A stretch of DNA of 64,000 bases from positions 4,422 through 68,421 of the IMG/VR virus record IMGVR_UViG_3300037010_000760; one strand, 5' to 3'. Under the pieces are notes generated by a model. That model searched no databases. It was not told where the DNA came from and saw only the letters and a program-made list of their open reading frames with translations. Position numbers and translations under genes: made by a program. Positions 932 through 14,971 of the stretch are shown piece by piece (position 1 is the first letter of the stretch; each line of letters starts with the position of its first letter). The stretch is from a virus.

Positions 932-3118
932 ATGAGTGCTTTAACTTGGAGACAGGTAACTGCTCCTGACTTCTCAGGACTGTCTTCTCTATACAGAACC
1001 GGGGCAGATCAACTTAACAGGTCTACGTCAGATTTGTCTACTGGCTTGAAAAATTGGCAAGATGCCCGAATGAGTCAGGCAGAAGATCAAATTGCCCAGC
1101 AAGCCAGCCAATACGATAGCCCAGAAGCCTACAGGGCCGATCTGGCAAGCGGTAAAATTTTGGGCAGTGTAGATCAAGGGCTTATTGGAAGAAAGCTCAT
1201 AGATGTTGCTTCGGGGCAGGAATCGGGCATTGCTGCTCGTGAAAGACAGGGTGCTCAGTATGCCATGCCCGAGGTAAATAATCTCATTCAACAGGCATTG
1301 ATAAACAAAGACGACCCTGCTGTTTCTTCTTTGGTTCAGCAATATGCGAAGCAGTTACGTCTTACTAACTCCCCATATGCTGACCCATTTAAGATACAGA
1401 GTTTACAAGAAGGTGTTAAAAATACTGATGCCAAAAAAGTTGCTCCATATATTGATAATGCCATAGCTTTAGCCGTATCTCAAGGTAATTACGATAATGC
1501 TAAAGCATTGGCTAGCAATAACCAAGATCAATTACTGCGTGCTGGATCACAGAACTTTTCTTCAGTAGCATTGCAAAATAATATGGATAAGCATGCTCTA
1601 TCTGATCTAAGTACCGCTACTGCTGATGCTACATTGCCACAAAATAAGCGTGAAATAACAGATGCTTGGCTTGCTACGGCTACCCCTACTCAACGAAAAG
1701 CATTTTTTACACAAAATCCTGAATACAATAGTGCAGCTACTTTGTTAGCTGCTGCTACTCCCGGTGTAGGTGATGCTACCGATTCTGATGGTAATTTAAT
1801 CAAATCTGGTTCTGGCATTGTTGCTAGTGGTAGTAGTGCCACCCCAGCTACAAATGCTATCTCTAGTGCTTTAACACCAACTACTGGCTCTAAGGTAACT
1901 GCTGCTACTTTGTCAGACGGCAAAGGCAAGTTAATCCCTGCTTCTGTTGCAGCCATCGCACATGAAGTAGGTTTGTCAGGCGAACAGCTTAAAATGCATA
2001 CAGCTATAACTGGACAAGAAAGTAGTAATAATGCCACTATTGGTAATAGTATAGACGGTGCTCATGGGCCAGGTCAAGTTATGCCTGATACCTTCAAAAA
2101 ATATGCCCTACCTGGGGAGAGTATAGATAATCCTGCTGATAACATTCGTGTTTCCCAACGTATCATAAAAGACTTATCTAATAAGACAAATGGCGATTTA
2201 GCTAGAGTTGCTGTAGGTTACTTTAGTGGTGAGGGTAATATAGCCCCTGCTGGTTCAGCTACTCCTTGGAAACGTGATACCCAAGACGGCAATCAAAAGA
2301 AAGTCAGTTCATATGTAGATGATGTTGTTAAAAAATACTCTACTGATAAAAACACTTATACACCAGCTCCACTTAATCCGGGTAATTTAAGTATTCCGGC
2401 TGTCCCAACTAAACAGGAACTAATAGATGGTGGTATTACTGCTTCTGGTTCTGGAGATAATATGGCCAGTCAAATACTGGCAAATAATATCTTCAATGAG
2501 GTTTCTAATATTGGCCCTAATGATATTGAGGGGGCGCATAAATTCCTCACCAATGCTTTAGGCGAAGGTGGTGCTGATATAATTAGCCCACTTAGATTCC
2601 GTGAACTATATGAGCAATATGGTAGACGGGAGACACAAGCTAGTATTGCAGATAGGGCTAAAGACCCTAAATTATCTCCTGTAACGGAAATGATTCCTAC
2701 TGGTGAGTTTGCAGCATCTTTATTAAATGCCACAAGTAATACTGGTGGATTTTTTAATCATACTAAATCTATGTCTGGAAAACTTAGTGATAGCTTTCTT
2801 GGTAACTTTAAGCCAAGTAGTAAGTGGATTGACCTACCTACATTGCAGGATAACGTAAATAAATCAGGTAGTGCTATACCTGAAGTTATGAATCGTAATG
2901 CTGCTATAGCAAAAGCATCTGCTCAAGACGTAAAAGATAGAGAGGATACAATTGCAAAGCAGCGTAGTCAGGTAGCTATGTATAAAACTCTCCTTGAGTC
3001 CCGTATTAATGATCCAAAATTGAAAGCTACGTATGAGGCATCTGTTTTACGATTAAATGAAATGTTGACTTCTGCACAAGCAAGTAATACTGCCTCTACT
3101 ATTAAAAACTCACGGTAG
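932..3118 (+). CDS. internal virion/ejection protein (N4 gp51-like) with lytic transglycosylase (SLT) domain
   Basis: N-terminal 'LTWRQVTAPDFS' typical of N4-like gp51. SLT motifs 'ITGQESS', 'GAHGPGQVMPDTF', 'NPADNI', 'VGYFSGEG' at about 1940-2340. Confidence 0.8.
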   Translation: MSALTWRQVTAPDFSGLSSLYRTGADQLNRSTSDLSTGLKNWQDARMSQAEDQIAQQASQYDSPEAYRADLASGKILGSVDQGLIGRKLIDVASGQESGIAARERQGAQYAMPEVNNLIQQALINKDDPAVSSLVQQYAKQLRLTNSPYADPFKIQSLQEGVKNTDAKKVAPYIDNAIALAVSQGNYDNAKALASNNQDQLLRAGSQNFSSVALQNNMDKHALSDLSTATADATLPQNKREITDAWLATATPTQRKAFFTQNPEYNSAATLLAAATPGVGDATDSDGNLIKSGSGIVASGSSATPATNAISSALTPTTGSKVTAATLSDGKGKLIPASVAAIAHEVGLSGEQLKMHTAITGQESSNNATIGNSIDGAHGPGQVMPDTFKKYALPGESIDNPADNIRVSQRIIKDLSNKTNGDLARVAVGYFSGEGNIAPAGSATPWKRDTQDGNQKKVSSYVDDVVKKYSTDKNTYTPAPLNPGNLSIPAVPTKQELIDGGITASGSGDNMASQILANNIFNEVSNIGPNDIEGAHKFLTNALGEGGADIISPLRFRELYEQYGRRETQASIADRAKDPKLSPVTEMIPTGEFAASLLNATSNTGGFFNHTKSMSGKLSDSFLGNFKPSSKWIDLPTLQDNVNKSGSAIPEVMNRNAAIAKASAQDVKDREDTIAKQRSQVAMYKTLLESRINDPKLKATYEASVLRLNEMLTSAQASNTASTIKNSR

Positions 3119-3184
3119 TAGGTAAATTTGAGTATATACTAGCCTCAACCCAAAAAGTTGGGGCTTTTTCACTTAGGACACACC

Positions 3185-6100
3185 ATGCCATCTGTTAGCG
3201 ACCTACTTACTCAGTTATTCAGTAATCCAGCATCCTCTGATATGGTTAAACCAAGTATCGGTACATCAACTGAAATTGGGATAACAGTTGATCAAAATAG
3301 CATGCTAAAGCAAGCAGAAGTAGATGCTGCTGCTGCTAGAAAAAAAGAAGAATTAGCTGGTACTTCTTTATCTAGTATGGGTGCCTATGGACTAGGTATT
3401 ACTTCTAGCACCGGATATGGTGCTAGAAGTGCGGGTCAGTTAGATAAGGACATGCTGACGCGCAATCCGGGTGAATTAATGAGTAAGTATGGGGCAGAAG
3501 TAGCTTTACGACTTCTTACTCAAAAAGCATCTGGGGAAGACTCATATAACATTGATAGAGGTATGCCAGTAAGTACCGGAGAAAATATTTCCGACTTTGC
3601 AATAAATACTGGTATCAGTGCTATAAATGCTGTTGGTGGTGCTGGTGCCTGGGCAGGTTCTCTAATAAATGATAAGCTGGGAACTACTTTATCTGGTAGC
3701 CTAGATGCATTTAATAATGCTGCGTCCTCACTTACATCTGATCGCTCTAAATCAAGTAAGCAGATTAATAGTACAACTAATTGGCTAGATACTCGTGATA
3801 ATGAGGCACAGTATCAAAAAGATAAAACCAATGGCGATATACTAGCTGTACTAAAACGTGAGGGCAGAAATGCTATTGGTGCAGTAAATATTGCTAAATC
3901 TGATCCAACTACGCTTTTAGAGGGTACTGCTAGCGGCATTGGTTCTATGTTAGGTTTTGGTTACTTTAATAAAGCTGTTCAGGGTATTGGTGGTACTGGA
4001 AAAGTAGCTACCATGATTCGTGATGCTAGTCTTCCAATCGCAGGTGGCCTAGTTGGTGGAGGCAGCATCTACCAACAAAACGTATCTGATATTATGGCCA
4101 AATCTACTGAAGAGATGGCTCAACAATCCCCGCAATATAATAAATATGTTGCTCAAGGCTTGTCACCTAAAGATGCACAAATACGTGTTGCTGCTGAATC
4201 TGGTGAATATGCTGCTAGCATAGCTGGGCCACTAGATATGATGACCACAATGATGGTTCCCGGTGTTAATGAGATACCACATCATGTTGGTTCAGTAGGA
4301 GAAGCATTTAAGCACACCCTGTTTGAGCCTGTGCAGGAGTTTATTGAAAGTTCTAACGAGCAATTTGCCAGTAATGCCGGAAATCAATATAAGTTTAATC
4401 CTAATCAGGACATAGCCGAAGGAGTGGGTAAAGCTGCTGGTACAGGTGCCTTATACGGTCTAACTTCTGCTGGTGCAACCCACGCTCCGGGTGTTGCTAT
4501 ATTAGGGGCAAAAGCCACTAAAGATGCTGCTGCTACTCTTCTTGGTTCTCTGAAGGATAAAGTTAGTTCTATTAGTGCAGATAACGAAAATAGTAGTCCA
4601 GTATCCAATGCTGCTTTAGCTACTAAAGCAACAACTGCTGCTACACAGACTCCTATTGTAGCTGCTAATATGCAAGCTGCTGCTGCTAATAGTGATCCTG
4701 CTATGCAGGCAAGAGTTGCTAACTTTACTAATATTATGCAATCTGTTAGCACACACGATGCTAATGATTTTGCAGAATCCAGTGATTCAATTAAGGCAGC
4801 ATTGAGCGGTGCTACTACAAAAATAGATGAATTAAATGCATTGAAATCCGTATTCAATAATAAAGATTCTACAGACTCTGATAAAGATTTTGCTGGTACT
4901 AAGTTAATTGATGAACTTAGTTCTATGAATGAGTTTTTGAATACTCAAACTGATGTTATTGATGCCGTTCAAGACGAACCAACAAAGAAATTTGTACGTG
5001 GTATGAAGCAGTTTGCTGCTGATATTCTAAGCAACAAAGAATTTCTTGCTACACGCAATGATATAGCTACTAGATTGGCTCAGAAGCATGAAACCAGTCA
5101 TCCTGAATTGGCTATTGCTGCCGACCCAACATCTCAAGAGGGCAAACAGGCCATTGCAGAGACTTTGGCCATAGCCAGTACATTGCCTACTGAAGTCAAT
5201 GGAAAAGCCGTGGATGCCATTCTGAAGCATTCTGAGGACGGTTCTATAAAGCTGACCCAAGAGCAAAAGGATAATCTGGAAGTCTCCAAAGCCGCTATTA
5301 CAGCCCTTCAGGACAATCTAGTAGACGGTTCCGATCTGATGCGTGTATCCACTGAAGCAAGCAGTGCAGGTTTAGCTGGTGACAAAGGTAAGTCCGCCAT
5401 TCAGCATGCTACTGATATTGTTAGAACTGTATCTGAGGGTAACATTCCTCTTGCCAAAACTTTATTAAAGAGTTTTGAAAGATTTGCTCAACATTATCAA
5501 AATAAAGCAGAAGCTGTTAACCAAGCTACACAAGAAGGTAATGATCAAGACTACAAAGCACATTACACACAATTGGCTCATGGTCAATGGGTTGAAAATA
5601 AAGCTCTATATACTTTTCAGAAGAGCGGTAAAGGAGTAGAATTAGCTACTCAGGTGCATAAAGAAGCTCGTGCTATCGGTAGCATGTATAACGCTATTGC
5701 ATCTATGTATCCCAATATGGGAGTTGAGCCGATTGCTTTAACCAAACCTGATTCTATATTCCTACCGGGTGGTAAGTTTGACCACAAAGCTACTCAGCAT
5801 GGTATTGGTGGTAACGGTTTAGCAGGTATTACTGCTTACCGTAACCGTTTAGTAACCCAACAATCGAAAGGAGCCGAAAATGGCCACGGGCAAAAAGAAG
5901 AAGTGCTAATTGCACCCGGTACTCCATCATTACCTACTAGACCGCCTGTTAGAGCAGACGGTACTGAATCCATCGAAAAGGTGTTCCACACTGATAGGGT
6001 GGAAGCAGCGGCCCAACTTCATGAAAGAAAGTTGGGTGTAGAAAAAGACTTACGCAATGCACTAACTAAGCCCCAACCTAATGAGGTAGGTTCTCTATAT

Positions 6101-9100
6101 GGTGCATTGCGTGGTATGTTATCCCCTGAGTCATTCAAAAATGACTTAGGTGGAAACCCTAAATTTAACTTTCTTAGGTCTATTAAAGGCAATAGCCTAA
6201 GAAACTTAATTGAGAATGGTTCATATCTTGATAGTTTTTTAACTTCTAGAATGACACTCAACAAGGGTGAAAATCTAGAAGCTGCTGTAGAGCACATTGT
6301 TGATAAGTTAAATTCTGGAAATTATCTTACTCAACAATTACAAGATCGTTTAGATCAGCTAGGTATAACACTACAGCAAATCAATGAGGCAATATCCGAT
6401 GAGCAACTTGATCAAGAAATCGCAGCCCTCGAAAAACGAATTGCTGATGAAGCTGCAACAGCTAAATCCAAAAAATCAGCTAGACCTGCTAAAGGCAGTG
6501 AAGCAGGGCAGACAGGAACTCAAAAAACAATCTTTGAGTCCGATGAGCAGTCCAACAAAATAGCACCTGTTACTGTAGCTCCAACTATTAATGCTACTAA
6601 ATTAGAAGTAACTCAGGCTGAGTACGATAAAGCCATCTCATTACAGTCTATGACTGGTGAGACCGCCCATGATGCATTGGATTCAGCTAGCAAGAAGACA
6701 CTAAAAATTCTAGATACTCTAGAAAATAATCCCGATAGCGTAGCTATTACGACAGATGCCACACCTACTGCTACTACTGCGTCAATAGACAAAATCAATA
6801 TTTGGTATGGCTCTAGTGAGAATGCTAGTTTAAGTAATCTTGCTGCTCGTAAATTTACTTTATTAGGTAAAGAGTATTTTTCTGTTGAGCATGCCTATCA
6901 AACTTTGAAAAGCGGTTCTTTTGATGAACGCACGTATGCGCGATACAAGAATGCTGGTGTAAAGATTTCTGGTAAGCAGGCCAAGATAGAAGGTGACTAC
7001 AACATTAGTTTAATGAAACGACTTATGCTTGCTTCCTTTAATCAAAATAAAGAAGCAAAAGACCTATTATTGGCCACTGGTAATGCTGAAATTACCCATA
7101 CACAAGAACAGGGTAAAAGTAAGTGGGCTACTATATTTCCTAGACTTCTCATGGAAGTAAGGAATGAGTTACGTGCCACACCTAACGCTACAGCACCTGA
7201 CACTGCACTAACATCATCAAAGCCTTCTACTGGGCCTACTCAAGTTACCCCCACTACACAGGTGTCACCACCTGCGATAGTTTCTCCTACAGTAAATCCA
7301 ATATCTGATGCAGAGCTTAGTAAGTTAAACCTATTTTTGGCTGCTAAAAGTAGATTAACTGAAATAATAACTAATCCTGCTACATATGACCCAAAAATAG
7401 TAGCTGCTGCCAAAAAGGAGCTTTCTGGGTTAACAAAAGATAGGCTTAATAAAGTAGACTATTTATTTGATGGTTTTCCTAGTGATAAAGCTGAACTGGA
7501 TTTTCTATCCAATGCTCCTCCGTCTCTTATTGCCGATACTCCCGGTAAACTAGAACGTCTATGGGAATTGCGTAATAAATCAGGAAAATTGTTTGCTAAT
7601 CTTGGTACAAGCAAGTTGCTTTCCACTGCTGGTAATATACTTATTGCTGGTACTAAGCCTGTTAATGAAAAGCGTGCTAGTCAATTAACTGATCGCCCTT
7701 TGGATACATTTGTTCAAATAGTCAATGAAAATACTAATATCAAAAGTGACGATAAAAAGCTACGTACTGGCTTGGCTAAATATATAACATTACGTGCTAA
7801 CTTGCTTCAATTGGCAGTTAGTAGAACTGTTTTAAATGAAGCAAACTCAGATAACAATCTGATAAAACTACTTCAGCTAGACCATCTTGACTCTCTGGGT
7901 AACAGTAATAAATACCGTATTGATTTGTTTCCGCAAAATAGACTGTTTTCTTTATTGGCTCCAGTAGATGAAGGGGATACTCCAAAAGTAAAGCTTGACC
8001 CTCGCCTTATGGAAACTGCTTCTTTAGCATTTATGCAGTGGATGCTTGGTGCAGTAGATCGCAAAGCTGTTGTTGATGAAAAGACTGTAGCTGGTATTCT
8101 TGGTATAGATGAAAACCTTGTTACTGAGGCTCAGATAGCAGAATATTCAGAACGTATTACTAATATTGAGGCTATTGATGCCATTAGTGCTGGTATATTG
8201 CGGCACTGGGGTTTAAAGCCAAAAGATAACATTCAAATAGGCTATAGCGAAGGTGTTACTAGAGTATTAGCAAAAGAGATGCTGGATGCTGCTGTTAGTA
8301 AGGAATTGATTGAAGCAGGTTTTGGCTTAAATCACAATCAAGTTCGTATTGATAGTAATAAAACTGTTGATAGCTATGGCATAGATAAGTTACCAAAGAA
8401 TGTTAAGTTAGCTAATGCTATTTTTCCTGATTTAGTTGATAACACTGCTTTTCTTAAAAATGATCAGGTTATGTACATTGGGGACGTTACTGTACCTACA
8501 TCTAAAACTATCTTGCGGGAGCCTGAACAATTACTTAGTCCTGAGCAGATTAGAGCACAAGACAATAACCAAAAAACTATTCATAGAATAGATGAGGCGT
8601 CTTACAAATTATTTATGGGTATTGGGGTAAAGGGGATATTTGATATTCTTTCTTTGCCTGAAAAAACTGATTTACTGAACATAGGTCATGCTAAATCTGT
8701 TATTGGTAAAAAGCAGGGCATATCTGCTGTGTTCAATAAAATGAAAGAAGTATACCAAAGAGTTTCTAATCTAGCTACTGATGGTGATGTTCATGGAGTG
8801 CCTATTCATTATAAGTTTGAATATACCAGCACAAATCGTTTACAGATGATAGGTAGTCATACACCACAAGCTAGTAAATGGATGCGTAATGTAATACTTC
8901 CTACCAACGGAACAATAGATGCTACATACGGTAAAATGGGATATACATCATTCATGTTATCTGTGGCTCAGAATCTTGGAGTCTCTATCCAAAATTATTC
9001 TAGAGAAGCCAATATAAGTAAGATAGCTACTAAATTAGACGGTGAACTTGCTGATGTTGTTAGCCTACTTAAAGATAGGGTAATTAATAATGAAGATAGG

Positions 9101-12100
9101 GTATCCCCTAAACTAATAGAAGCTTTGAAATCAGCCTTGGGATCGGAATTTACCCCATCCTCTTTATATGCACTTCATGAATATGCCCGCTATCTGGCCA
9201 GCAGTGAGGCTGATAAAGCGAACTTTAAGACTGGCCTGTATATTGAGGCTGATGGGGTTAATAACGGCCCCGCCAGTGCTCTGATGATGCTTGGTGGAAC
9301 CAGTGAACTCACTCATGAATTCTTTACCAATGCAGCCCGTATAGGTTATTTTATTGGTTCAGATGACAGAACACTTAACCAACAACGTCAAGAAGACCCT
9401 ACAGGATTATATGAGGCAGGTGCTCAAGTGTTGCCTACTTTCTTAGCTGATTTTGGTAATAAAATTGATGGCCATATTATACCAGAAGGCGAAAATACAC
9501 CTGCTATTGATCTCGGTGCTTACTTTGATCAAGTTAAGTATGTAGTAGCTAGTTTACTACCCAACTTCTCTATGGACGAAAATGGTAATTATACCATTGG
9601 ACGTTCTGTTATAAAGAATCCCCTCACTAAAACTGTATACGGTTCTGGCTCTCGTGGTATGGGTAATGGTCTTCTTAAAGACATGCTAAATGCATTCTAC
9701 GAGAAGCTATCTATAGTCAAGCTATATGAGGACTGGTATAGTAGTGAGGGTAAGAGTAATCCTAGAGAGTCAGCCTTTGTAGAGGTATTTGGTGACCAGT
9801 ACAGAGAACTAATTAAGTCAATGCATCGTCTTGCTAGTCATAGCGTAGAAGTTGAGAAAAAACAATTTGTTGTTAAGAATGGTATCTCCCCCCAAAATAA
9901 GTTTTTTGTTGAAAATGACTATCTTAATTTTGAGGTATCGGGTACTGCATTTAATAGCATGAGCAACAATATTAATACATTCTTTTCCAAGAAAGTAAGG
10001 AGTGCTATTACTGATGTTATGTCCGAAGCTGTTATGGACTCTACTCAATTGTTAGCTAAAGCAACTAGCTTCCATACTGAGTTCATGTCCCATGAGTTCA
10101 ATAAGCTATACGAAGCTGCTTTAGCTAAAAGAAAGAATTCTGATCACTTGTATAGACAAGCTGATGGTTTGTCCAATGATGAACTACGTGCTATTACAAA
10201 TAAAATGTCTAAGACATTTCCTTATATAAAAACAACTACACAAAGTTTTAATCCAGTTGGTGCCTCCAAGATAAGTAGTGATAACTTCATAGGTGTTACG
10301 TCTACCGGATATAAGGTTACTCCATCCATATTTGTACCAGAAAGTGCTGGTGTATCTGGCATTCCTTACATGATTATTGGTTTAGGAGATGGAAGAACTA
10401 TTCAGATATTTTCAGATGGTGGCCCAGAAGATACATTAAATATTTATGATGGTATCCATATGGGCTTAGGTAAAGTAGAAGAATATAGTAAGAGAGCTAA
10501 TTCTGCTGTTTGGGACTCATGGCAAGGTAATCCTTTTGGTGCTCTTTTTCCATCTCTATCCACATTCGTTACTAACTATGACTGGCCTACTTTTTTAGCT
10601 TCTGCTAAATCGGATAAACTAAAAATTGCTCCTATCCTAGCTGCACTACATATTAAGTCTGTTTCCGAGTTACCAAATTACATAGCAAATCTTATTAATA
10701 ATGTTTCAACCTCTGCTAAGAATATAGATGCTACTCACCAAGTTTTAGGCAAATATAAGGCTACTATTGATCAGTTAGCCTCTATAGGCTCACCATATGT
10801 TAAATCAGGAGCGGATATTATTATTGATGATGCCTCTATAGCTGATATAAACTCCAAAATATCTTCTATAGCTCAGGCTGATACTAATTATGCCGTAAAT
10901 GGTATACTATCCGATGTTGCAGCTAAATTTAATGTACCCACCCCAACAAAACCTACTGAGTACAGCCTCAAATCATTTATAGCAACAGGTAGTGTAGCCA
11001 ATAAGACTACCACTGTAGAATCTCTACTGTCTACTAAATTACTTGATAATGTTTCTGTAAAGTACGGGCCACTAAGCTCATTTAGCGACAAGCTAACAAA
11101 AGATGACTTTGGTGGTTATGACCCAAAAACAAATACTATTTATATAGCCTCAGATAAATCTGGTGGAGTTGAGACATTAACGCATGAAATGGTTCATGCT
11201 GCTACATTTAGGGCTATTGCCAATCACTATGCCAATCCTGGTAACTCAGTTATAGCTACTGAAGTGTCCAGATTAGAGACATTGATGGGTAGCTTTTTAA
11301 ACAGGGCTGCCTTATCCATAGACGATACCGTCAGTGGTATAGCGGATAAAATCAATAAGATTGGTGATAGCTCTATTAAATTGAATGAGTTTATGGCATA
11401 TGGTTTGTCAAACCCTGCCATGCGTGCTGATTTAACCTCTGCTACTGCCTTAAAATTGCCTGAGAATATTATTAATAAATATACTGGTAAGATTAAGCAA
11501 CTGATAAAAGATATTCTTACTAAATTAGGTGTGCAGGCTCAAAAAACAGAATATGATCAACTTGTATTTAATGCGGTTCATGTGATGGCTAGTGGTGATA
11601 ATGCTACTATGTCTAATGGACAAATTCTCAAAATGGCTATTGGTGGCCTCAATACCAATAACCGTCTAAATAAGGTTACTGAATTCTTTGCTAGCAGCCT
11701 TGATAAATATCTTGATAGTCAGATAGACCCTGCGTTTTCAAGACTACCTCCAACAGGTTTACTTACTAAAAATCCAGGTGAGTTTACTAGAGCAGATAGA
11801 CTTGGATTTCAAGTATCTACTCTAATTGCCAGCAAATTTAATACCAGTCCACAGGAAAAAGTGGCATTGGATATGATTGTAAGTACCTTGGCAACAGGTG
11901 CTAAATTAGATGGTAATATCATGTCTGGTATAGAGCAACTCTATACCCACTTTACCAAGAATCTAACTCCAGAAGACTTCTTGCTAGTTGCCCCAACTGA
12001 TGCTACCCAAGCAGATACCTATGAAGCTAACGAGATGTATAACCTCGTCATGGGCAACTATACTACAGCTAAAGACGTGTATGGCCGTGGCCAGACACTG

Positions 12101-14971
12101 CCTATATTCTTTTCTTTGGGGCTAGTGAATGATCGCTTCCGTGATGTGCTGTCCAAGAAGGGACTTCCTGAAGCCATCAAGGTGATCTCTAGTGATACTG
12201 ATGCGTTCCTAACTAGCTCTGCAAATTTCCTATTGGACAAAATGGATAAGGCTCTGATAGGAACCGCAAAATCCAAAAACACTCAGCAAGCCTTGGATAG
12301 TATCTTTTCTACTTTGGTTCAAACTGGTACAGATTCCCTGACGTTGGTTGGTGCTGGTTTAAATAAAACTGGAAGTATGGTTGATGGTATAAATGACAGA
12401 GTTGTCTCAGCTATAGAATATGTTTCAGCTAAGTTAAATGATAGTGCTGATAAAAAATTAGCAACTACATCTAATAAAGTTGTAAAAGGTGTTGCCAACG
12501 TAGCCAAGAATATTGCTTTATCAATAAATGAAGATACAGCAGCTCGTGTTGGTGAGTTTGCTGTCTCATTGTCTAATCAGTCAAATTTATTTAAACCACT
12601 TCAATCTTTAATAACAGATTTTGTTGGCAGGACTGATAGTAACAAATTGTTATATGACATGATTAAGTTTGTTAGATCAAATGCTCAGAAAGATCGTCAG
12701 CATTATCGTGAAGAACTGCCTGCCATATTAGCATCACAATTTACACGTAAACTATCTGATAAAGAGTGGACTCATCTTTTCACTGGCCTAGCTAAAACAG
12801 ATTTAGCACAATTAGTTAACTCAATTGGCATTAAAGATACGGTTTCACTATTGTCTGACCCAACAAAAATAGATACTCGTATTACTACGTTAGAGGCTAA
12901 CCTGAGAAATCAAGTGCCAAGTAGCTGGCCTAGTATTCAGAAAAAGTCTAAGCAGCTTGCTAATTATATGATGACTGGTGAGCATGGCCCTATGCTTATG
13001 CGTAATGCTGATATTATTCAGTTAACTTTAGGTGGCAACCGTAATGAGATTGACTCTCTGGTAACTCTGTACGCTCTACAAAAACTTGAGCAGCCTGTAA
13101 AGACTACCCTTACTTCTTTAGTTCAAACTCAGAAATCTGGCATTGATTCCCTAGTCGGCTACCTATCTGGTCAGCGCCAAGATGATATACATCCTGATGC
13201 TGCTATTCGTATGAACGTATATAAAGGATATATCCCATCATTGCAAAATGAATCGGTATCGTTAAAAGTGATGCCGAATACAGAGCATGCTGCTATGCTA
13301 GAAAAGGGTTATATTCGTACAGGCAACTATGCAGGCTCTATACTTGAGACCAGAGCCTCATCTAGTTACTACTTCTTAAATGCCCCTGCTAAAGCTGCGT
13401 TTAGTCAGGGTCTCATACAAAACGTACATAGTACATCTGGTGGCATTGATACTAGAACTCTATTCTCTACTGGATTAGTTGCTGGTCGTATTGTCGACCC
13501 TAGAGTAGTAAGTAAGCTAGCCCCGTATCTAAATGGTGATGTAGCTGGTAACGAGAATCTGTTACCCATATTTGATGGTACTGGTAACATCATTGCATTG
13601 GAGAGGGCTGTACGTCCAGATCAACTTGTACAACTAAAGCAAGATACCCATTTAGCAAAAATGATTGGTGTATGGCGTGGTCGCCAAGTTGAGGAGTATA
13701 AATCAAGAGCTGTTAACGAGGCACTTATTTCCAGATTTAAGCAAATGTATTCTGACGATATTAGTAAAAATCCAAATACCGCTAGAGAGTATGTTAATCT
13801 ATTTCAGTCCCAAGACCCAATACACAAAGATGCGCTAAAACTAATGCCTATTTATATGAAGAGGGCATTGGAATCTGAGTTTGGAAAAGATACATTTATG
13901 GTCAGAAAAGACATGATTGACAGCACCATCGGTTATCGTACACCATCTATAGGTGATGCTTGGACTGGTGTATCTGGCTGGAGTCCTAAGAGTCTCGAAT
14001 TAGCTAAAAATGTCACTATGTCCATATTTGGTAATAAATCATATGAGTACCTTGTGAATGCAGAGCAGATACTCAAAAATGCTATACAAGATGTTAAGCT
14101 GATTATTGTCGTTAAATCTGTAATTGTGCCTGTTGGTAATATGTTAGCCAACGTCATTCAATTAATGTCTAGAGGCGTGCCTATCAATGATATTGTTCGT
14201 GGAATGCCAAAAAAAGTTTCTGAAGTTACTTTCTACAATAAGCAACATCTTCGTAAAATTGAGCTAGAAGTCGCATTACGTGTTGCTGAGGGTAACAATG
14301 ATATTGTTGGTATTCGTAAAGCAAAGAATGAGTTGGAGACTATTGAAGATAGTTTCCGTAGACTAAGCATTTGGCCTTTAATACATGCAGGAGAATTTTC
14401 TGCTATTTCTGATGCTGGTATTTCTAGAGATGATATTATTTTGTCAGAAGGTAGACTGCATACCTATATAGAGAACCTTACAAACAAGTTGCCAGATGGA
14501 GTACGTACAGCGGCTAAATATGGTTTAGTCGCTAAAGATACTGCATTATTCCAAGGTTTGCAAAAAGCAGTTGAATATGGTGACTTCTTGGCTAAGGCTA
14601 TTCAGTATGATTATCTGACTACTAATAAGAAACTTAGCAAAGAAGACTCGTTAGCCCGTATATCTGAAGAATTTGTTAACTATGACCTGCTAATGGGCAG
14701 ATTCCGAGAATATATGGAGAACATTGGTCTATTATGGTTTACGGCTTTCAAAGTACGTTCTACCAAGATAGCTGCATCCATTATAAGGAATAATCCATTC
14801 CATGCTTTAATGTCATCTATCCCCCATTCATTTATGCCATCAGGTACTGGCACCCCTATTACTGATAACGCGGTAGCCAAGACTATGACTGGTAGTATTT
14901 GGTACTCACTTGGATTTGGTCAAGCATTACGTGCTCCTCAATTAAATCCTTGGTTCAATCTGGCCTATTAA
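3185..14971 (+). CDS. virion-encapsidated RNA polymerase (N4 gp50-like) with inserted NADAR domain and zincin-like HExxH region
   Basis: About 3930 aa; ATG 3185 follows AGGA. T7-superfamily motifs A 'YIEADGVNNG', B 'RSVIKNPLTKTVYGSG', C 'LNIYDG'. 'TLTHEMVHAAT' near 11180. No Cys seen on reading, as known for N4 vRNAP. Confidence 0.96.
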   Translation: MPSVSDLLTQLFSNPASSDMVKPSIGTSTEIGITVDQNSMLKQAEVDAAAARKKEELAGTSLSSMGAYGLGITSSTGYGARSAGQLDKDMLTRNPGELMSKYGAEVALRLLTQKASGEDSYNIDRGMPVSTGENISDFAINTGISAINAVGGAGAWAGSLINDKLGTTLSGSLDAFNNAASSLTSDRSKSSKQINSTTNWLDTRDNEAQYQKDKTNGDILAVLKREGRNAIGAVNIAKSDPTTLLEGTASGIGSMLGFGYFNKAVQGIGGTGKVATMIRDASLPIAGGLVGGGSIYQQNVSDIMAKSTEEMAQQSPQYNKYVAQGLSPKDAQIRVAAESGEYAASIAGPLDMMTTMMVPGVNEIPHHVGSVGEAFKHTLFEPVQEFIESSNEQFASNAGNQYKFNPNQDIAEGVGKAAGTGALYGLTSAGATHAPGVAILGAKATKDAAATLLGSLKDKVSSISADNENSSPVSNAALATKATTAATQTPIVAANMQAAAANSDPAMQARVANFTNIMQSVSTHDANDFAESSDSIKAALSGATTKIDELNALKSVFNNKDSTDSDKDFAGTKLIDELSSMNEFLNTQTDVIDAVQDEPTKKFVRGMKQFAADILSNKEFLATRNDIATRLAQKHETSHPELAIAADPTSQEGKQAIAETLAIASTLPTEVNGKAVDAILKHSEDGSIKLTQEQKDNLEVSKAAITALQDNLVDGSDLMRVSTEASSAGLAGDKGKSAIQHATDIVRTVSEGNIPLAKTLLKSFERFAQHYQNKAEAVNQATQEGNDQDYKAHYTQLAHGQWVENKALYTFQKSGKGVELATQVHKEARAIGSMYNAIASMYPNMGVEPIALTKPDSIFLPGGKFDHKATQHGIGGNGLAGITAYRNRLVTQQSKGAENGHGQKEEVLIAPGTPSLPTRPPVRADGTESIEKVFHTDRVEAAAQLHERKLGVEKDLRNALTKPQPNEVGSLYGALRGMLSPESFKNDLGGNPKFNFLRSIKGNSLRNLIENGSYLDSFLTSRMTLNKGENLEAAVEHIVDKLNSGNYLTQQLQDRLDQLGITLQQINEAISDEQLDQEIAALEKRIADEAATAKSKKSARPAKGSEAGQTGTQKTIFESDEQSNKIAPVTVAPTINATKLEVTQAEYDKAISLQSMTGETAHDALDSASKKTLKILDTLENNPDSVAITTDATPTATTASIDKINIWYGSSENASLSNLAARKFTLLGKEYFSVEHAYQTLKSGSFDERTYARYKNAGVKISGKQAKIEGDYNISLMKRLMLASFNQNKEAKDLLLATGNAEITHTQEQGKSKWATIFPRLLMEVRNELRATPNATAPDTALTSSKPSTGPTQVTPTTQVSPPAIVSPTVNPISDAELSKLNLFLAAKSRLTEIITNPATYDPKIVAAAKKELSGLTKDRLNKVDYLFDGFPSDKAELDFLSNAPPSLIADTPGKLERLWELRNKSGKLFANLGTSKLLSTAGNILIAGTKPVNEKRASQLTDRPLDTFVQIVNENTNIKSDDKKLRTGLAKYITLRANLLQLAVSRTVLNEANSDNNLIKLLQLDHLDSLGNSNKYRIDLFPQNRLFSLLAPVDEGDTPKVKLDPRLMETASLAFMQWMLGAVDRKAVVDEKTVAGILGIDENLVTEAQIAEYSERITNIEAIDAISAGILRHWGLKPKDNIQIGYSEGVTRVLAKEMLDAAVSKELIEAGFGLNHNQVRIDSNKTVDSYGIDKLPKNVKLANAIFPDLVDNTAFLKNDQVMYIGDVTVPTSKTILREPEQLLSPEQIRAQDNNQKTIHRIDEASYKLFMGIGVKGIFDILSLPEKTDLLNIGHAKSVIGKKQGISAVFNKMKEVYQRVSNLATDGDVHGVPIHYKFEYTSTNRLQMIGSHTPQASKWMRNVILPTNGTIDATYGKMGYTSFMLSVAQNLGVSIQNYSREANISKIATKLDGELADVVSLLKDRVINNEDRVSPKLIEALKSALGSEFTPSSLYALHEYARYLASSEADKANFKTGLYIEADGVNNGPASALMMLGGTSELTHEFFTNAARIGYFIGSDDRTLNQQRQEDPTGLYEAGAQVLPTFLADFGNKIDGHIIPEGENTPAIDLGAYFDQVKYVVASLLPNFSMDENGNYTIGRSVIKNPLTKTVYGSGSRGMGNGLLKDMLNAFYEKLSIVKLYEDWYSSEGKSNPRESAFVEVFGDQYRELIKSMHRLASHSVEVEKKQFVVKNGISPQNKFFVENDYLNFEVSGTAFNSMSNNINTFFSKKVRSAITDVMSEAVMDSTQLLAKATSFHTEFMSHEFNKLYEAALAKRKNSDHLYRQADGLSNDELRAITNKMSKTFPYIKTTTQSFNPVGASKISSDNFIGVTSTGYKVTPSIFVPESAGVSGIPYMIIGLGDGRTIQIFSDGGPEDTLNIYDGIHMGLGKVEEYSKRANSAVWDSWQGNPFGALFPSLSTFVTNYDWPTFLASAKSDKLKIAPILAALHIKSVSELPNYIANLINNVSTSAKNIDATHQVLGKYKATIDQLASIGSPYVKSGADIIIDDASIADINSKISSIAQADTNYAVNGILSDVAAKFNVPTPTKPTEYSLKSFIATGSVANKTTTVESLLSTKLLDNVSVKYGPLSSFSDKLTKDDFGGYDPKTNTIYIASDKSGGVETLTHEMVHAATFRAIANHYANPGNSVIATEVSRLETLMGSFLNRAALSIDDTVSGIADKINKIGDSSIKLNEFMAYGLSNPAMRADLTSATALKLPENIINKYTGKIKQLIKDILTKLGVQAQKTEYDQLVFNAVHVMASGDNATMSNGQILKMAIGGLNTNNRLNKVTEFFASSLDKYLDSQIDPAFSRLPPTGLLTKNPGEFTRADRLGFQVSTLIASKFNTSPQEKVALDMIVSTLATGAKLDGNIMSGIEQLYTHFTKNLTPEDFLLVAPTDATQADTYEANEMYNLVMGNYTTAKDVYGRGQTLPIFFSLGLVNDRFRDVLSKKGLPEAIKVISSDTDAFLTSSANFLLDKMDKALIGTAKSKNTQQALDSIFSTLVQTGTDSLTLVGAGLNKTGSMVDGINDRVVSAIEYVSAKLNDSADKKLATTSNKVVKGVANVAKNIALSINEDTAARVGEFAVSLSNQSNLFKPLQSLITDFVGRTDSNKLLYDMIKFVRSNAQKDRQHYREELPAILASQFTRKLSDKEWTHLFTGLAKTDLAQLVNSIGIKDTVSLLSDPTKIDTRITTLEANLRNQVPSSWPSIQKKSKQLANYMMTGEHGPMLMRNADIIQLTLGGNRNEIDSLVTLYALQKLEQPVKTTLTSLVQTQKSGIDSLVGYLSGQRQDDIHPDAAIRMNVYKGYIPSLQNESVSLKVMPNTEHAAMLEKGYIRTGNYAGSILETRASSSYYFLNAPAKAAFSQGLIQNVHSTSGGIDTRTLFSTGLVAGRIVDPRVVSKLAPYLNGDVAGNENLLPIFDGTGNIIALERAVRPDQLVQLKQDTHLAKMIGVWRGRQVEEYKSRAVNEALISRFKQMYSDDISKNPNTAREYVNLFQSQDPIHKDALKLMPIYMKRALESEFGKDTFMVRKDMIDSTIGYRTPSIGDAWTGVSGWSPKSLELAKNVTMSIFGNKSYEYLVNAEQILKNAIQDVKLIIVVKSVIVPVGNMLANVIQLMSRGVPINDIVRGMPKKVSEVTFYNKQHLRKIELEVALRVAEGNNDIVGIRKAKNELETIEDSFRRLSIWPLIHAGEFSAISDAGISRDDIILSEGRLHTYIENLTNKLPDGVRTAAKYGLVAKDTALFQGLQKAVEYGDFLAKAIQYDYLTTNKKLSKEDSLARISEEFVNYDLLMGRFREYMENIGLLWFTAFKVRSTKIAASIIRNNPFHALMSSIPHSFMPSGTGTPITDNAVAKTMTGSIWYSLGFGQALRAPQLNPWFNLAY

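Follow-up and report, generated by a model that had tools for sequence, protein, structure and literature searches.

A NADAR-type domain in the linker of an N4-like virion RNA polymerase and its possible role as an ejected counter-defence enzyme

A stretch of viral DNA of 64,000 nucleotides (IMG/VR record IMGVR_UViG_3300037010_000760, positions 4,422 to 68,421; referred to here as the window) encodes an N4-like virion RNA polymerase (vRNAP) of the Schitoviridae gp50 type, and the linker ahead of its polymerase core carries a folded domain of the NADAR/YbiA type. We give about even chances to the explanation that this domain is a catalytically competent NADAR 'bead' in the linker of an ejected vRNAP, which would strip ADP-ribose from the incoming DNA against a DarT1-like defence.

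The vRNAP gene, the homologue of N4 gp50, was identified from the ORF list, Pfam and blastp as a single unbroken ORF on the plus strand (positions 3158..14971). Counted from TTG 3158, the product has 3937 aa, and residue numbers are counted from this position throughout; the true start is likely ATG 3185, which has AGGA in front and would give a product of 3928 aa. Comparison with N4 gp50 by blastp yielded three aligned blocks, all on the plus strand: the N-terminal domain (NTD; aa 51-866, 3308..5755), which is 27% identical to N4 gp50 aa 18-890 (E 2e-78); the RNA polymerase region (aa 1605-2551, 7970..10810), which aligns with aa 1138-2068 (E 5e-125); and the C-terminal domain (CTD; aa 2651-3937, 11108..14968), which is 39% identical to aa 2206-3500. 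Four Pfam families (vRNAP_dom_2, vRNAP_plug, N4_RNAP_helical and vRNAP_dom) all exceeded their cut-offs within aa 1797-2541. An earlier sequence-only reading had placed a NADAR domain in the injected vRNAP, upstream of the polymerase core; the four Pfam families and the blastp alignment bear out the host protein, and the position of the polymerase domains bears out the site.

For aa 1-866, 867-1211, 1386-1800 and 2542-3937 only sub-threshold Pfam matches were obtained (PhaC_N, Sigma54_CBD, DUF6829 and DUF6782). The weak match to the metallopeptidase family DUF6782 was located in the CTD, which also carries an HExxH motif (aa 2676-2680, nt 11183-11197, plus strand); the residues H2676, E2677 and H2680 of this motif were invariant in an alignment of 10 vRNAPs. 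When a 1200-aa query was compared with the phage collection, the match to 181 N4-like phage records was confined to the RNA polymerase region. When the region was searched by megablast, the phage collection gave no match, and the polymerase core, used as a single-protein query against viral contigs, gave 10 pattern matches, none of which was confirmed.

The two genes preceding the vRNAP gene on the plus strand (404-922 and 932-3118) occupy the places of N4 gp52 and gp51, which are ejection proteins, as judged from PHROGs and N4 gene order; the second encodes a product of 728 aa with an SLT domain (Pfam SLT). Other N4-like genes in the window, detected with Pfam and PHROGs, were those for RNAPII subunits, rIIA/B, primase, SSB, portal and a gp49-like protein. 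As the sequence-only reading had stated, the vRNAP is free of Cys (0 of 3937 residues); from the 69 Cys in the 7829 residues of 12 other window ORFs, about 35 would be predicted for a protein of this size. N4 gp50 and 141 of the best 150 among 538 vRNAP relatives (representatives) were also Cys-free, and the product of gene 932-3118 has no Cys in its 728 aa. In N4, the NTD of gp50 is the membrane-anchoring part, the linker holds the RNAP and the CTD on a tether as they refold in the cytoplasm, and only about four copies of the vRNAP are packaged in the virion (PMC13434306).

The folded core of the NADAR domain was delimited by the AF2 model and its structural alignments to aa ~1209-1342 (approximately 6782..7183, plus strand). 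The span proposed earlier, 6791-7176, corresponds to aa 1212-1339; judged by the AF2 model and the structural alignments its borders were correct within about three residues, and the five motifs quoted for it were all found in frame. Pfam and NCBIfam models stayed below their cut-offs: PF08719 (NADAR) scored 21.9 bits with the whole protein and 27.1 bits with a 228-aa piece, against a gathering cut-off of 35.1, and TIGR02464 scored 28.3 bits against a cut-off of 73.7. The Pfam search that had been suggested as a check on the domain thus fell short, and it was a profile of 25 sequences together with fold comparison that upheld the assignment. Against the PDB this profile matched YbiA (2b3w) with E 3.4e-24 and 89 bits and the NADAR of Phytophthora nicotianae (PnNADAR, 8bau) with E 6.4e-17; with the single NADAR sequence as query, YbiA was obtained at just E 0.01. 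The PF08719 cut-off is a curated score limit and not a biochemical property, and a score below it marks a divergent NADAR subtype. The AF2 model (pLDDT 86.4, pTM 0.79, with low pLDDT at the C-terminal end) reached VIA Z scores of 13.9 with 2b3w (140 aa, rmsd 3.6), 13.8 with 8bau (132 aa, rmsd 2.4) and 8.2 with DarG1 (8bat), and the best non-NADAR chain reached 2.5. Foldseek returned the same three solved NADARs as its top three matches, and a structural search of BFVD gave 36 matches at E<=1e-3, many of them with NADAR names. Profile and model together show that aa ~1209-1342 have the NADAR/YbiA-type fold; a chance resemblance of motifs was ruled out by the profile E value of 3.4e-24 and by structural Z scores of 13.9 and 13.8 against 2.5. 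The base composition of the domain (GC 36.5%, against 38.8% for the gene) was unremarkable and did not point to a recent foreign insertion.

Within the domain, E1244 (codon GAG, 6887..6889, plus strand) aligns to E36 of T4 gp30.3 (AdfN) and corresponds to the catalytic Glu of NADARs (AdfN E36, E. coli C7 NADAR E88, PnNADAR E43). K1251 (6908..6910, plus strand), at a spacing of i+7 from E1244, aligns to AdfN K43 and is the counterpart of the catalytic Lys (AdfN K43, C7 NADAR K95, PnNADAR K50). The catalytic roles of this Glu and Lys in NADARs have been described (PMC11257639, PMC11543638), and mutation of E36/K43 abolishes the counter-defence by AdfN (PMC11257639). The third active-site position is occupied by H1314 (7097..7099, plus strand), which aligns with the Glu of 'LYEAS' in 8bau (PnNADAR E125), with the His of T4 gp30.3 and, in a MAFFT alignment, with the Glu of three canonical NADARs (L017-L019); in the alignment with 2b3w, HMMER places it one residue off. 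Members of the YbiA family and PnNADAR (E125) have Glu at this position; DarG1 has Asp, and T4-like phage NADARs have His (PMC11543638). E1244, K1251 and H1314 were invariant in all 130 subfamily domains, as were S1226, N1227 and Q1248. Among 10 NADAR-bearing vRNAPs, mean pairwise identity was 0.62 in the NADAR domain as against 0.29 in the polymerase region, and the NADAR domain, with about 3% of the length, yet contained 39 of the 103 invariant columns. Going by the NADARs that have been assayed, we infer that the domain is catalytically competent.

The region between NTD and polymerase region, taken as the gap between the blastp segments, is expanded (aa 867-1604, 738 aa; 5756..7969, plus strand) and corresponds to N4 gp50 aa 891-1137 (247 aa), within which aa 907-1006 form a low-complexity linker (PMC13434306). 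When at least 60% T/P/A/S in 30-aa windows was used as the criterion, a flexible Thr/Pro/Ala/Ser-rich linker was located after the NADAR domain (aa 1335-1387; 7160..7318, plus strand; composition scan and low pLDDT). Thr/Pro/Ala linkers had been claimed for both sides of the domain; the downstream one was confirmed, and upstream only a TPA-rich stretch of about 16 aa was seen, which lies under the threshold. The flanks at aa 927-1153 and 1447-1603 are common to a vRNAP that is itself without NADAR (P0156). A sister vRNAP has near-identical flanks and, at the NADAR site, an unrelated and unannotated domain of 125 aa, and other vRNAPs have an SF1 helicase or a SLOG domain ahead of the core, such as the cpYpsA SLOG in the same pre-core region of vRNAP P0275. 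Given the unrelated domain in the sister vRNAP and the helicase and SLOG domains in others, the NADAR site is modular, in the manner of a cassette, and has the look of a slot for exchangeable cargo. The alternative domain of about 125 aa gave no Pfam match, no PDB sequence match and no Foldseek match at E<=1e-3, and its best VIA Z, 5.8, is at noise level; it also neighbours NADAR in polyvalent proteins.

NADAR was found in two of the best 150 among 538 vRNAP relatives (representative clusters), in none of the 181 N4-like records of the phage collection and not in N4 itself. These counts ruled out NADAR as a universal vRNAP feature, and the sequence-only reading, which had named a universal insert as an argument against itself, escapes that objection. 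A linker that tolerates inserts as different as an α/β domain, a helicase and a SLOG domain, together with the absence of such a domain from most vRNAPs among the best 150 of the 538 relatives, would suit a folded spacer of no enzymatic relevance, or a binding module that does no more than recognise ADP-ribose, retained for ejection mechanics. We consider this highly improbable, since the catalytic Glu/Lys/His and S1226, N1227 and Q1248 are unchanged in 130 of 130 domains, the conservation of NADAR is double that of the polymerase core, and giant proteins of unrelated kinds contain this module as well, which would not be expected of a spacer.

The best functional analogue of the window domain is AdfN (gp30.3; Johannesman et al.), a proven anti-DarTG1 enzyme (PMC11257639). 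Like the window domain, AdfN has the NADAR fold, the catalytic Glu/Lys at i+7 and a His at the third position, is phage-encoded and is devoid of a DarG1-type N-terminal extension; hhalign of the two gave a probability of 93.3% (E 2.6e-7). AdfN is, however, a stand-alone early product of 152 aa made after infection, whereas the window NADAR lies inside a polymerase of 3.9 kaa that would be packaged and ejected, and the shortened 'T-H-x-Q-D..W' loop of the window subtype is not shared with AdfN. Phage_30_3 (PF08010) scored 20.8 bits against a cut-off of 36 bits and matched the N-terminal half only; by sequence, the relationship to AdfN appears remote and falls outside PF08010. The best matches in both sequence and structure were YbiA (2b3w) and PnNADAR (8bau), and PnNADAR E43, K50, W133 and D130 have their equivalents in E1244, K1251, W1323 and E1317. 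Both are stand-alone cellular proteins with Glu at the third position, where the window NADAR has His, and their canonical D..WG.G loop is shortened in the window NADAR. YbiA is a small-molecule N-glycosidase with a role in the damage control of riboflavin intermediates.

DarG1 (8bat; Schuller et al., PMC11543638) has the superfamily, the fold (Z 8.2) and the Glu/Lys in common with the window NADAR, but judged from the alignments the latter is not DarG1-like. The profile score was only 15.2 bits for DarG1 of G. lovleyi (8bat) as against 89 bits for YbiA, and DarG1 has Asp at the third catalytic position in contrast to H1314. At its N-terminus DarG1 has a beta-beta-alpha extension of basic surface, proposed as an ssDNA binder (PMC11543638). 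This extension is absent from the window NADAR, which has a TPA linker upstream instead; the AF2 model aligns only to residues 48-202 of the 8bat chain. A PADLOC scan gave no match to DarG, its sole match being PDC-M42C (E 0.0022). Whereas DarG1 is associated with DarT1, no DarT was found beside the window NADAR: members of the ART/DarT family were detected neither in the vRNAP or 39 other window ORFs with Pfam (E<=0.001) nor among 32 window ORFs scanned with PHROGs, these scans covering ORFs of at least 70 aa in the part of the record that follows its first 4.4 kb.

The same scans bear on the possibility that NADAR serves the polymerase or the phage itself, by taking ADP-ribose off RNA or off the protein targets of a phage ART, whose 'eraser' it would be, or by a part in RNA-end repair. 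An ART domain occurs in some N4-like vRNAPs (PMC5512222), the giant proteins P0103 and P0119 pair NADAR with ART-PolyVal (PF18760), and a connection of NADARs with RNA repair contexts has been drawn (PMC9503650). The lack of an ART in the vRNAP and in the other ORFs scanned nevertheless speaks against an eraser, and we regard this group of functions as improbable.

According to the preferred explanation, namely removal of ADP-ribose from incoming DNA, NADAR would be one 'bead' in the flexible linker that joins the membrane-anchoring NTD and the polymerase core, and the whole vRNAP, judging from N4, would be packaged and ejected along with the DNA. Since it would enter in this way, NADAR would already be in place, as a finished enzyme, where the ejection channel opens into the cytoplasm, within seconds of the onset of infection and preceding phage gene expression. 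Its most probable task would be to strip ADP-ribose off bases (guanine, possibly cytosine) of the incoming phage DNA, including the single-stranded hairpin promoters and the template read by the tethered polymerase, and DarT1-like DNA ADP-ribosyltransferase defences would be countered as the outcome. Both the substrate and the defence are plausible by analogy with AdfN, and because AdfN is proven against DarTG1 and is the best functional analogue, an anti-DarT1 role is a reasonable reading on the same grounds. All four NADAR subtypes assayed hydrolyse guanine-ADPr in vitro (PMC11125620), and phages are rescued from DarTG1 by three unrelated NADARs of phage origin (PMC11257639). The basic pI of the NADAR domain (9.7, as against an acidic 6.3 for the whole vRNAP) lends weak support to nucleic-acid binding. 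As a counterpoint, YbiA and T4 gp30.3 gave no rescue of DarT1 toxicity in uninfected cells (PMC11125620), and in sequence YbiA (89 bits) is the closer relative and DarG1 (15.2 bits) the more distant one. With only about four vRNAP copies per virion, as in N4, the enzyme dose would be tiny and protection limited to early, local events. That phage NADARs are packaged and put to use at infection had been proposed before in general terms (PMC9503650). If the explanation is true, a function would be assigned to part of the giant vRNAP, two-thirds of which is poorly understood. To our knowledge, phages make all their known countermeasures to DarTG (AdfA, AdfN and others) only once infection starts; a NADAR carried by the virion in the first genome-acting protein would represent a different, 'pre-loaded' counter-defence strategy.

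A further candidate for the substrate is provided by small ADP-ribose-derived molecules (cyclic or linear ADPr immune signals, toxic ADPr metabolites), which the injected NADAR might degrade, blunting host NAD+/ADPr signalling defences at entry. Small ADPr-derived signals were put forward as the main targets of phage NADARs by Iyer et al. 2022 (PMC9503650), and a small-molecule role was proposed for phage NADARs generally in a survey of jumbo phages (PMC7824862). The fusion of the window subtype with SLOG-type domains (PF12694 cpYpsA, PF10686) and DUF4326 (PF14216) in giant proteins agrees with the view of Iyer et al.; the cpYpsA SLOG of P0275, at the same pre-core region, and YbiA, as the closest solved relative by sequence and an enzyme of small molecules, likewise favour such a role. 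We nevertheless hold it to be unlikely. The literature examined contains no report of a NADAR that cleaves an immune signal, and the NADARs assayed in it all act on ADPr that is linked to the bases of nucleic acids (PMC11125620, PMC12945103, PMC11257639). An enzyme present in a few copies and tethered to the membrane would also be ill-suited to clearing a diffusible signal, and the basic pI better suits a nucleic-acid substrate.

Over 100 polyvalent proteins, giant and mostly poor in Cys, contain the same NADAR subtype, and 59 of 120 giant relatives bear a precomputed PF08719 label. Among these relatives are carriers of LPD3, PF18857, ART-PolyVal, helicase and SLOG domains. Polyvalent proteins (Iyer et al. 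2017, PMC5512222) are giant, virion-borne, multi-domain and predicted to be injected, as is the window vRNAP, which qualifies as one, since polymerase, peptidase-like HExxH motif and effector-type NADAR are united in it. Among polyvalent proteins are fusions of vRNAPs with ART, peptidase or lysozyme domains (PMC5512222). The words NADAR, DUF1768 and YbiA are absent from the main text of PMC5512222, and the available text of the literature examined yielded no description of a NADAR within a vRNAP or of a cassette swap at one defined site.

The top BFVD structural matches to the window NADAR were giant proteins of crAss-like phages whose genes adjoin those of the virion RNAP. The same subtype was recognised by profile in cr126_1 ('DUF1768 domain-containing protein', 2402 aa; E 2.7e-48) and in cr131_1 (1401 aa; E 5e-35), and these very large NADAR proteins are encoded beside a gene for an RNA polymerase subunit. 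Crassvirales are, however, a different order with an unrelated polymerase type, and as annotated their NADAR lies in the adjoining giant protein, whereas here it lies within the polymerase.

It is tentatively suggested that the linker between membrane anchor and core of schitovirus vRNAPs is hot-swappable, with pre-made enzymes that differ between lineages (NADAR, the α/β domain of about 125 aa, SLOG, SF1 helicase); these would arrive within seconds of the start of infection and stay tethered at the channel through which the DNA enters. NADAR would then erase ADP-ribose in cis from promoter hairpins and template, early transcription would be immune to DarT1-type DNA ADP-ribosylation ahead of phage gene expression, and the ~125-aa domain would be a new counter-defence enzyme. 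This extended proposal is possible, though we are more inclined to doubt than to accept it. The cassette swap at one site suggests a general route by which N4-like phages could diversify their injected cargo and, with the occurrence of the subtype in over 100 giants as well as in crAss-like phages, points to many candidate injected effectors, including one unannotated domain family.

A tree of the NADAR domains was calculated by quick IQ-TREE from 148 columns, with 54 of its 111 inner branches unresolved. At least two placements are needed for the vRNAP NADARs, the order of events lying beyond the resolution of the tree. The label 'giant_other' has false negatives, as exemplified by P0013, which has vRNAP Pfam labels and was missed by the core HMM. 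The window domain fell into a six-member clade of vRNAP NADARs, which had an SH-aLRT of 99.

The vRNAP gene of the window was a single open frame of 3937 codons on the plus strand (3158-14971; residues counted from nt 3158). Its listed TTG start is part of a short hairpin with a trailing T-run that comes after the preceding gene (3140-3184); an ATG at 3185 with AGGA upstream is the likelier start and gives a protein of 3928 aa. Comparison with N4 gp50 by blastp yielded three blocks, namely the N-terminal domain (NTD; aa 51-866, gp50 18-890), the polymerase (aa 1605-2551, gp50 1138-2068) and the C-terminal domain (CTD; aa 2651-3937, gp50 2206-3500). Translation of 6791-7176 gave 128 aa in frame with all of the motifs quoted in the sequence-only reading, and the position upstream of the polymerase core was borne out by four vRNAP-specific Pfam families at aa 1797-2541, every one above its cut-off.

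The case for a NADAR domain was weak when based on the single sequence and strong when relatives were added. Against the 35.1-bit cut-off of the Pfam NADAR family, the whole vRNAP scored 21.9 bits and a piece of 228 aa 27.1 bits; NCBIfam TIGR02464 scored 28.3 bits against 73.7, and YbiA was reached in the PDB at E 0.01 (phmmer). The Pfam check proposed earlier thus stayed under its cut-off, but a profile of 25 rows, built from the window domain together with 14 domains from IMG/VR loci and 10 short metagenomic proteins, matched YbiA (2b3w) at E 3.4e-24. The same profile matched the Phytophthora NADAR PnNADAR (8bau) at E 6.4e-17 and reached the DarG1 structure 8bat at 15.2 bits only. An AlphaFold2 model from this alignment had a mean pLDDT of 86.4 and a pTM of 0.79 and was confident in the core but floppy at the ends. 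The three solved NADARs were exactly the top three Foldseek hits in the PDB, and VIA-align Z scores of 13.9 for 2b3w, 13.8 for 8bau (rmsd 2.4 Å, 132 residues) and 8.2 for 8bat, against 2.5 for the next chain, upheld the predicted NADAR fold. In BFVD, 36 viral models were found at E<=1e-3, the first three being giant proteins of crAss-like phages, with many proteins named NADAR after them.

The catalytic residues of E. coli C7 NADAR are E88, K95 and D171, corresponding to E43, K50 and E125 of PnNADAR; at the E125 position the YbiA family has Glu, the DarT-linked family Asp and phage NADARs His (Schuller et al., PMC11543638). The T4 anti-DarT NADAR AdfN (gp30.3) requires E36 and K43 (Johannesman et al., PMC11257639). 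In the window domain, E1244 and K1251 lie within 'VEHAYQTLK' with the i+7 spacing of the known NADAR pair. The 25-row alignment matched T4 gp30.3 by hhalign with a probability of 93.3% (E 2.6e-7), whereby E1244/K1251 fell on E36/K43 and H1314 on the gp30.3 His. H1314 was also aligned with a Glu in two further comparisons, that of the 8bau 'LYEAS' motif in the profile search and that of three stand-alone phage NADARs of canonical type in MAFFT; its position is ambiguous by ±1 because the HMMER alignment to 2b3w is one residue off. S1226, N1227, E1244, Q1248, K1251 and H1314 were invariant in 130/130 domains of this NADAR subtype, and T1313 was present in 124/130. The subtype thus bears the signature 'T-H-x-Q-D…W', and a shortened loop replaces the canonical D..WG.G. 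At pI 9.7 the domain is basic (K+R 20, D+E 13), whereas the whole vRNAP has a pI of 6.3.

The interval between NTD and polymerase comprised 738 aa (aa 867-1604) as compared with 247 aa in N4 (aa 891-1137; blastp blocks). In N4 gp50, aa 907-1006 form a low-complexity linker, and in the current model the inner membrane and the ejectosome serve as anchor for the NTD, and cytoplasmic refolding turns RNAP and CTD into linker-anchored beads on a string (PMC13434306). Given this model and the expanded interval, the NADAR is an extra bead in the linker. Downstream of it, the Thr/Pro/Ala linker seen earlier was confirmed as a T/P/A/S-rich segment of 53 aa (aa 1335-1387). The vRNAP was indeed Cys-free (0/3937), about 35 Cys being predicted from the 0.88% average of 12 other window ORFs. 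N4 gp50 (0/3500), 141/150 vRNAP representatives and the gp51-like ejection protein of the window (932-3118; 0/728) also contained none; cysteine is nearly absent from ejected proteins.

Among 10 NADAR-bearing vRNAPs, mean pairwise identity was 0.62 (minimum 0.50) in the NADAR, 0.29 in the polymerase region, 0.30 in the NTD and 0.35 in the CTD, and 39 of the 103 invariant columns fell within the 128-aa NADAR. Such high conservation reflects strong constraint or a recent exchange of the module, or both of these. In a quick and poorly resolved domain tree, six vRNAP NADARs, that of the window among them, formed a clade with good support, and the others were scattered among polyvalent proteins. 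Judged from sequence comparison, the clearest evidence for a putative module exchange is given by two library proteins, P0156 and the NADAR-bearing P0006, whose flanks are nearly letter-for-letter identical, with a different domain of about 125 aa between them in P0156. P0156 is the second-closest vRNAP representative (40% core identity) and shares both flanks of the site with the window; the site of its alternative domain (aa ~1120-1237) corresponds to window aa ~1154-1446 (nt ~6617-7495).

This alternative domain, with the motifs AKDQxKSD, FIGRGS..SST, VFVS.EG.R.GR and YN.GEREVA, had no Pfam match and no PDB sequence match. Its AlphaFold2 model (pLDDT 93.5) was a three-layer alpha/beta fold for which Foldseek and VIA-align gave no convincing solved relative (best Z 5.8). 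Of its 45 shorter relatives, many stand alone at 122-166 aa, and some lie in proteins with a NADAR, DUF4326 or T7-like RNAP label. It was found in 3/150 vRNAP representatives (best 150 of 538), each time before the core. It adjoined a NADAR in no fewer than six multi-domain proteins, of which three belong to the giants and three are shorter. A Pfam scan of 25 vRNAP representatives with long pre-core regions revealed an SF1 (PIF1/RecD-like) helicase in four (P0191, P0269, P0274 and P0299; aa ~1040-1610), a circularly permuted YpsA (cpYpsA) SLOG domain in P0275 (aa 1255-1335), a NADAR in P0286 and no Pfam family in this region in the remaining 19. With NADAR, alternative domain, helicase and SLOG in the pre-core region, the NTD-RNAP linker thus appears to be a variable, general cargo slot of vRNAPs.

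The NADAR insert proved not to be universal in N4-like vRNAPs. The polymerase core had 538 relatives in a representative library of 1.84 billion proteins, and among the best 150 of these the profile detected NADAR in two (P0004 and P0286; hmmsearch, E<=1e-3). The profile found nothing in the N4 genome but did detect T4 gp30.3, included to check its sensitivity to remote relatives, at E 3e-6. In INPHARED, tblastn with a 1200-aa query that includes the NADAR gave 181 N4-like records, and among the 60 matches listed none covered the NADAR; they covered query residues 805-1197, the polymerase part, with one Rhizobium phage match starting from 680. The domain itself matched 17 INPHARED records, none of them (0/17) a schitovirus. 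Records very near the window may be absent from the collections searched.

Among library proteins of 2165-6890 aa, 204 matched the domain. The 120 listed had a median length of 3952 aa; 60 had no Cys and 97 had two or fewer. Twelve carried a vRNAP core (own HMM), with the NADAR N-terminal to it in 11, and the rest were other giant proteins with the labels LPD3, PF18857, ART-PolyVal, SF1 helicase, SLOG, DUF4326, SprT or SLT. Only 16 short proteins (85-273 aa) matched, several on contigs under 1.5 kb, and in IMG/VR the domain lay inside frames of more than 2800 aa in 13/18 related loci. From this size distribution and the poverty in Cys, the subtype occurs chiefly as a module of giant proteins that hold few Cys and are presumably injected. 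Crassvirales share the pattern, with the same subtype inside giant proteins and beside RNA polymerase subunit genes: in cr126_1 (locus L023, 7647-14855) a 2402-aa 'DUF1768 domain-containing protein' adjoins a 'putative RNA-polymerase subunit' gene, and in cr131_1 (locus L024, 5574-9779) a 1401-aa ORF lies amid giant genes. The six-frame match in cr131_1 (W05:C1:63529-64011) holds one in-frame TAG, compatible with either a recoded stop codon or the border of a gene. Among named phages, the nearest relative of the domain (50% identity) comes from the jumbo Bacillus phage AgentSmith (locus L022, 5695-6408), where it makes up the C-terminal half of a 'toprim domain-containing' protein of 237 aa, with tRNA genes adjoining.

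The vRNAP reads single-stranded hairpin promoters, and a NADAR that is part of the ejected polymerase would act at entry. It would have the same ADPr-glycohydrolase chemistry as known NADARs, which act on guanine-linked ADPr of DNA (PMC11543638). All four NADAR subtypes tested, including YbiA and T4 gp30.3, remove guanine-ADPr in vitro, and in-cell rescue from DarT1 depends on the subtype (PMC11125620); some NADARs also remove cytidine-linked ADPr (PMC12945103), and three unrelated phage NADARs counter DarTG1 (PMC11257639). Stripping of base-linked ADPr from incoming DNA is ranked first, at roughly even odds, being consistent with the chemistry known for NADARs, with an active site of AdfN type, with the basic charge and with the polymerase tether. 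The main rival, rather unlikely in our estimate, is that the domain degrades small ADPr-derived signals; such a substrate was proposed by Iyer et al. (PMC9503650; PMC7824862), and it agrees with the SLOG and DUF4326 domains that accompany the subtype. Whatever the substrate, NADAR action would be local and early, since only about four vRNAP copies are present per N4 virion (PMC13434306). No ART was found in the vRNAP, in 39 ORFs (Pfam) or in 32 ORFs (PHROGs), which makes a self-contained writer/eraser pair improbable in this phage.

NADAR enzymes and phage NADARs as anti-DarTG1 factors are already known (PMC11257639); packaging of NADARs into virions has been predicted, viral NADARs being described as 'typically standalone' (PMC9503650), and fusion of vRNAPs, as polyvalent proteins, to ART and further domains has been described (PMC5512222). 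The words NADAR, DUF1768 and YbiA do not occur in the main text of PMC5512222. Among the full-text matches listed, a NADAR in a vRNAP, N4-like/Schitoviridae or crAss setting was not found in print, although figures or supplements may list such an architecture. What would be new is a distinct NADAR subtype, its architectural setting, and the evidence for a swappable cargo slot with an unannotated partner domain.

Elsewhere the window has the usual content of an N4-like genome, with two RNAPII subunits, rIIA/B, DNA polymerase, primase, SSB, portal and major head protein; it covers bases 4422-68421 of the 68,421-base IMG/VR record (completeness 93%, CheckV estimate). An HExxH motif in the vRNAP (11183-11197, aa 2676-2680) was invariant, together with E2672, across the 10 vRNAPs, with a weak DUF6782 metallopeptidase match, and is presumably the zincin-like peptidase module of N4-type vRNAPs (Iyer et al. 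2017, PMC5512222). Two large proteins of the virion region, one with GH5 cellulase and GH18 domains (48897-51689) and one with GH48 and Calx-beta domains (51700-54240), are probably tail-associated depolymerases, and their domains hint at a beta-glucan or chitin-like polymer on the host surface.
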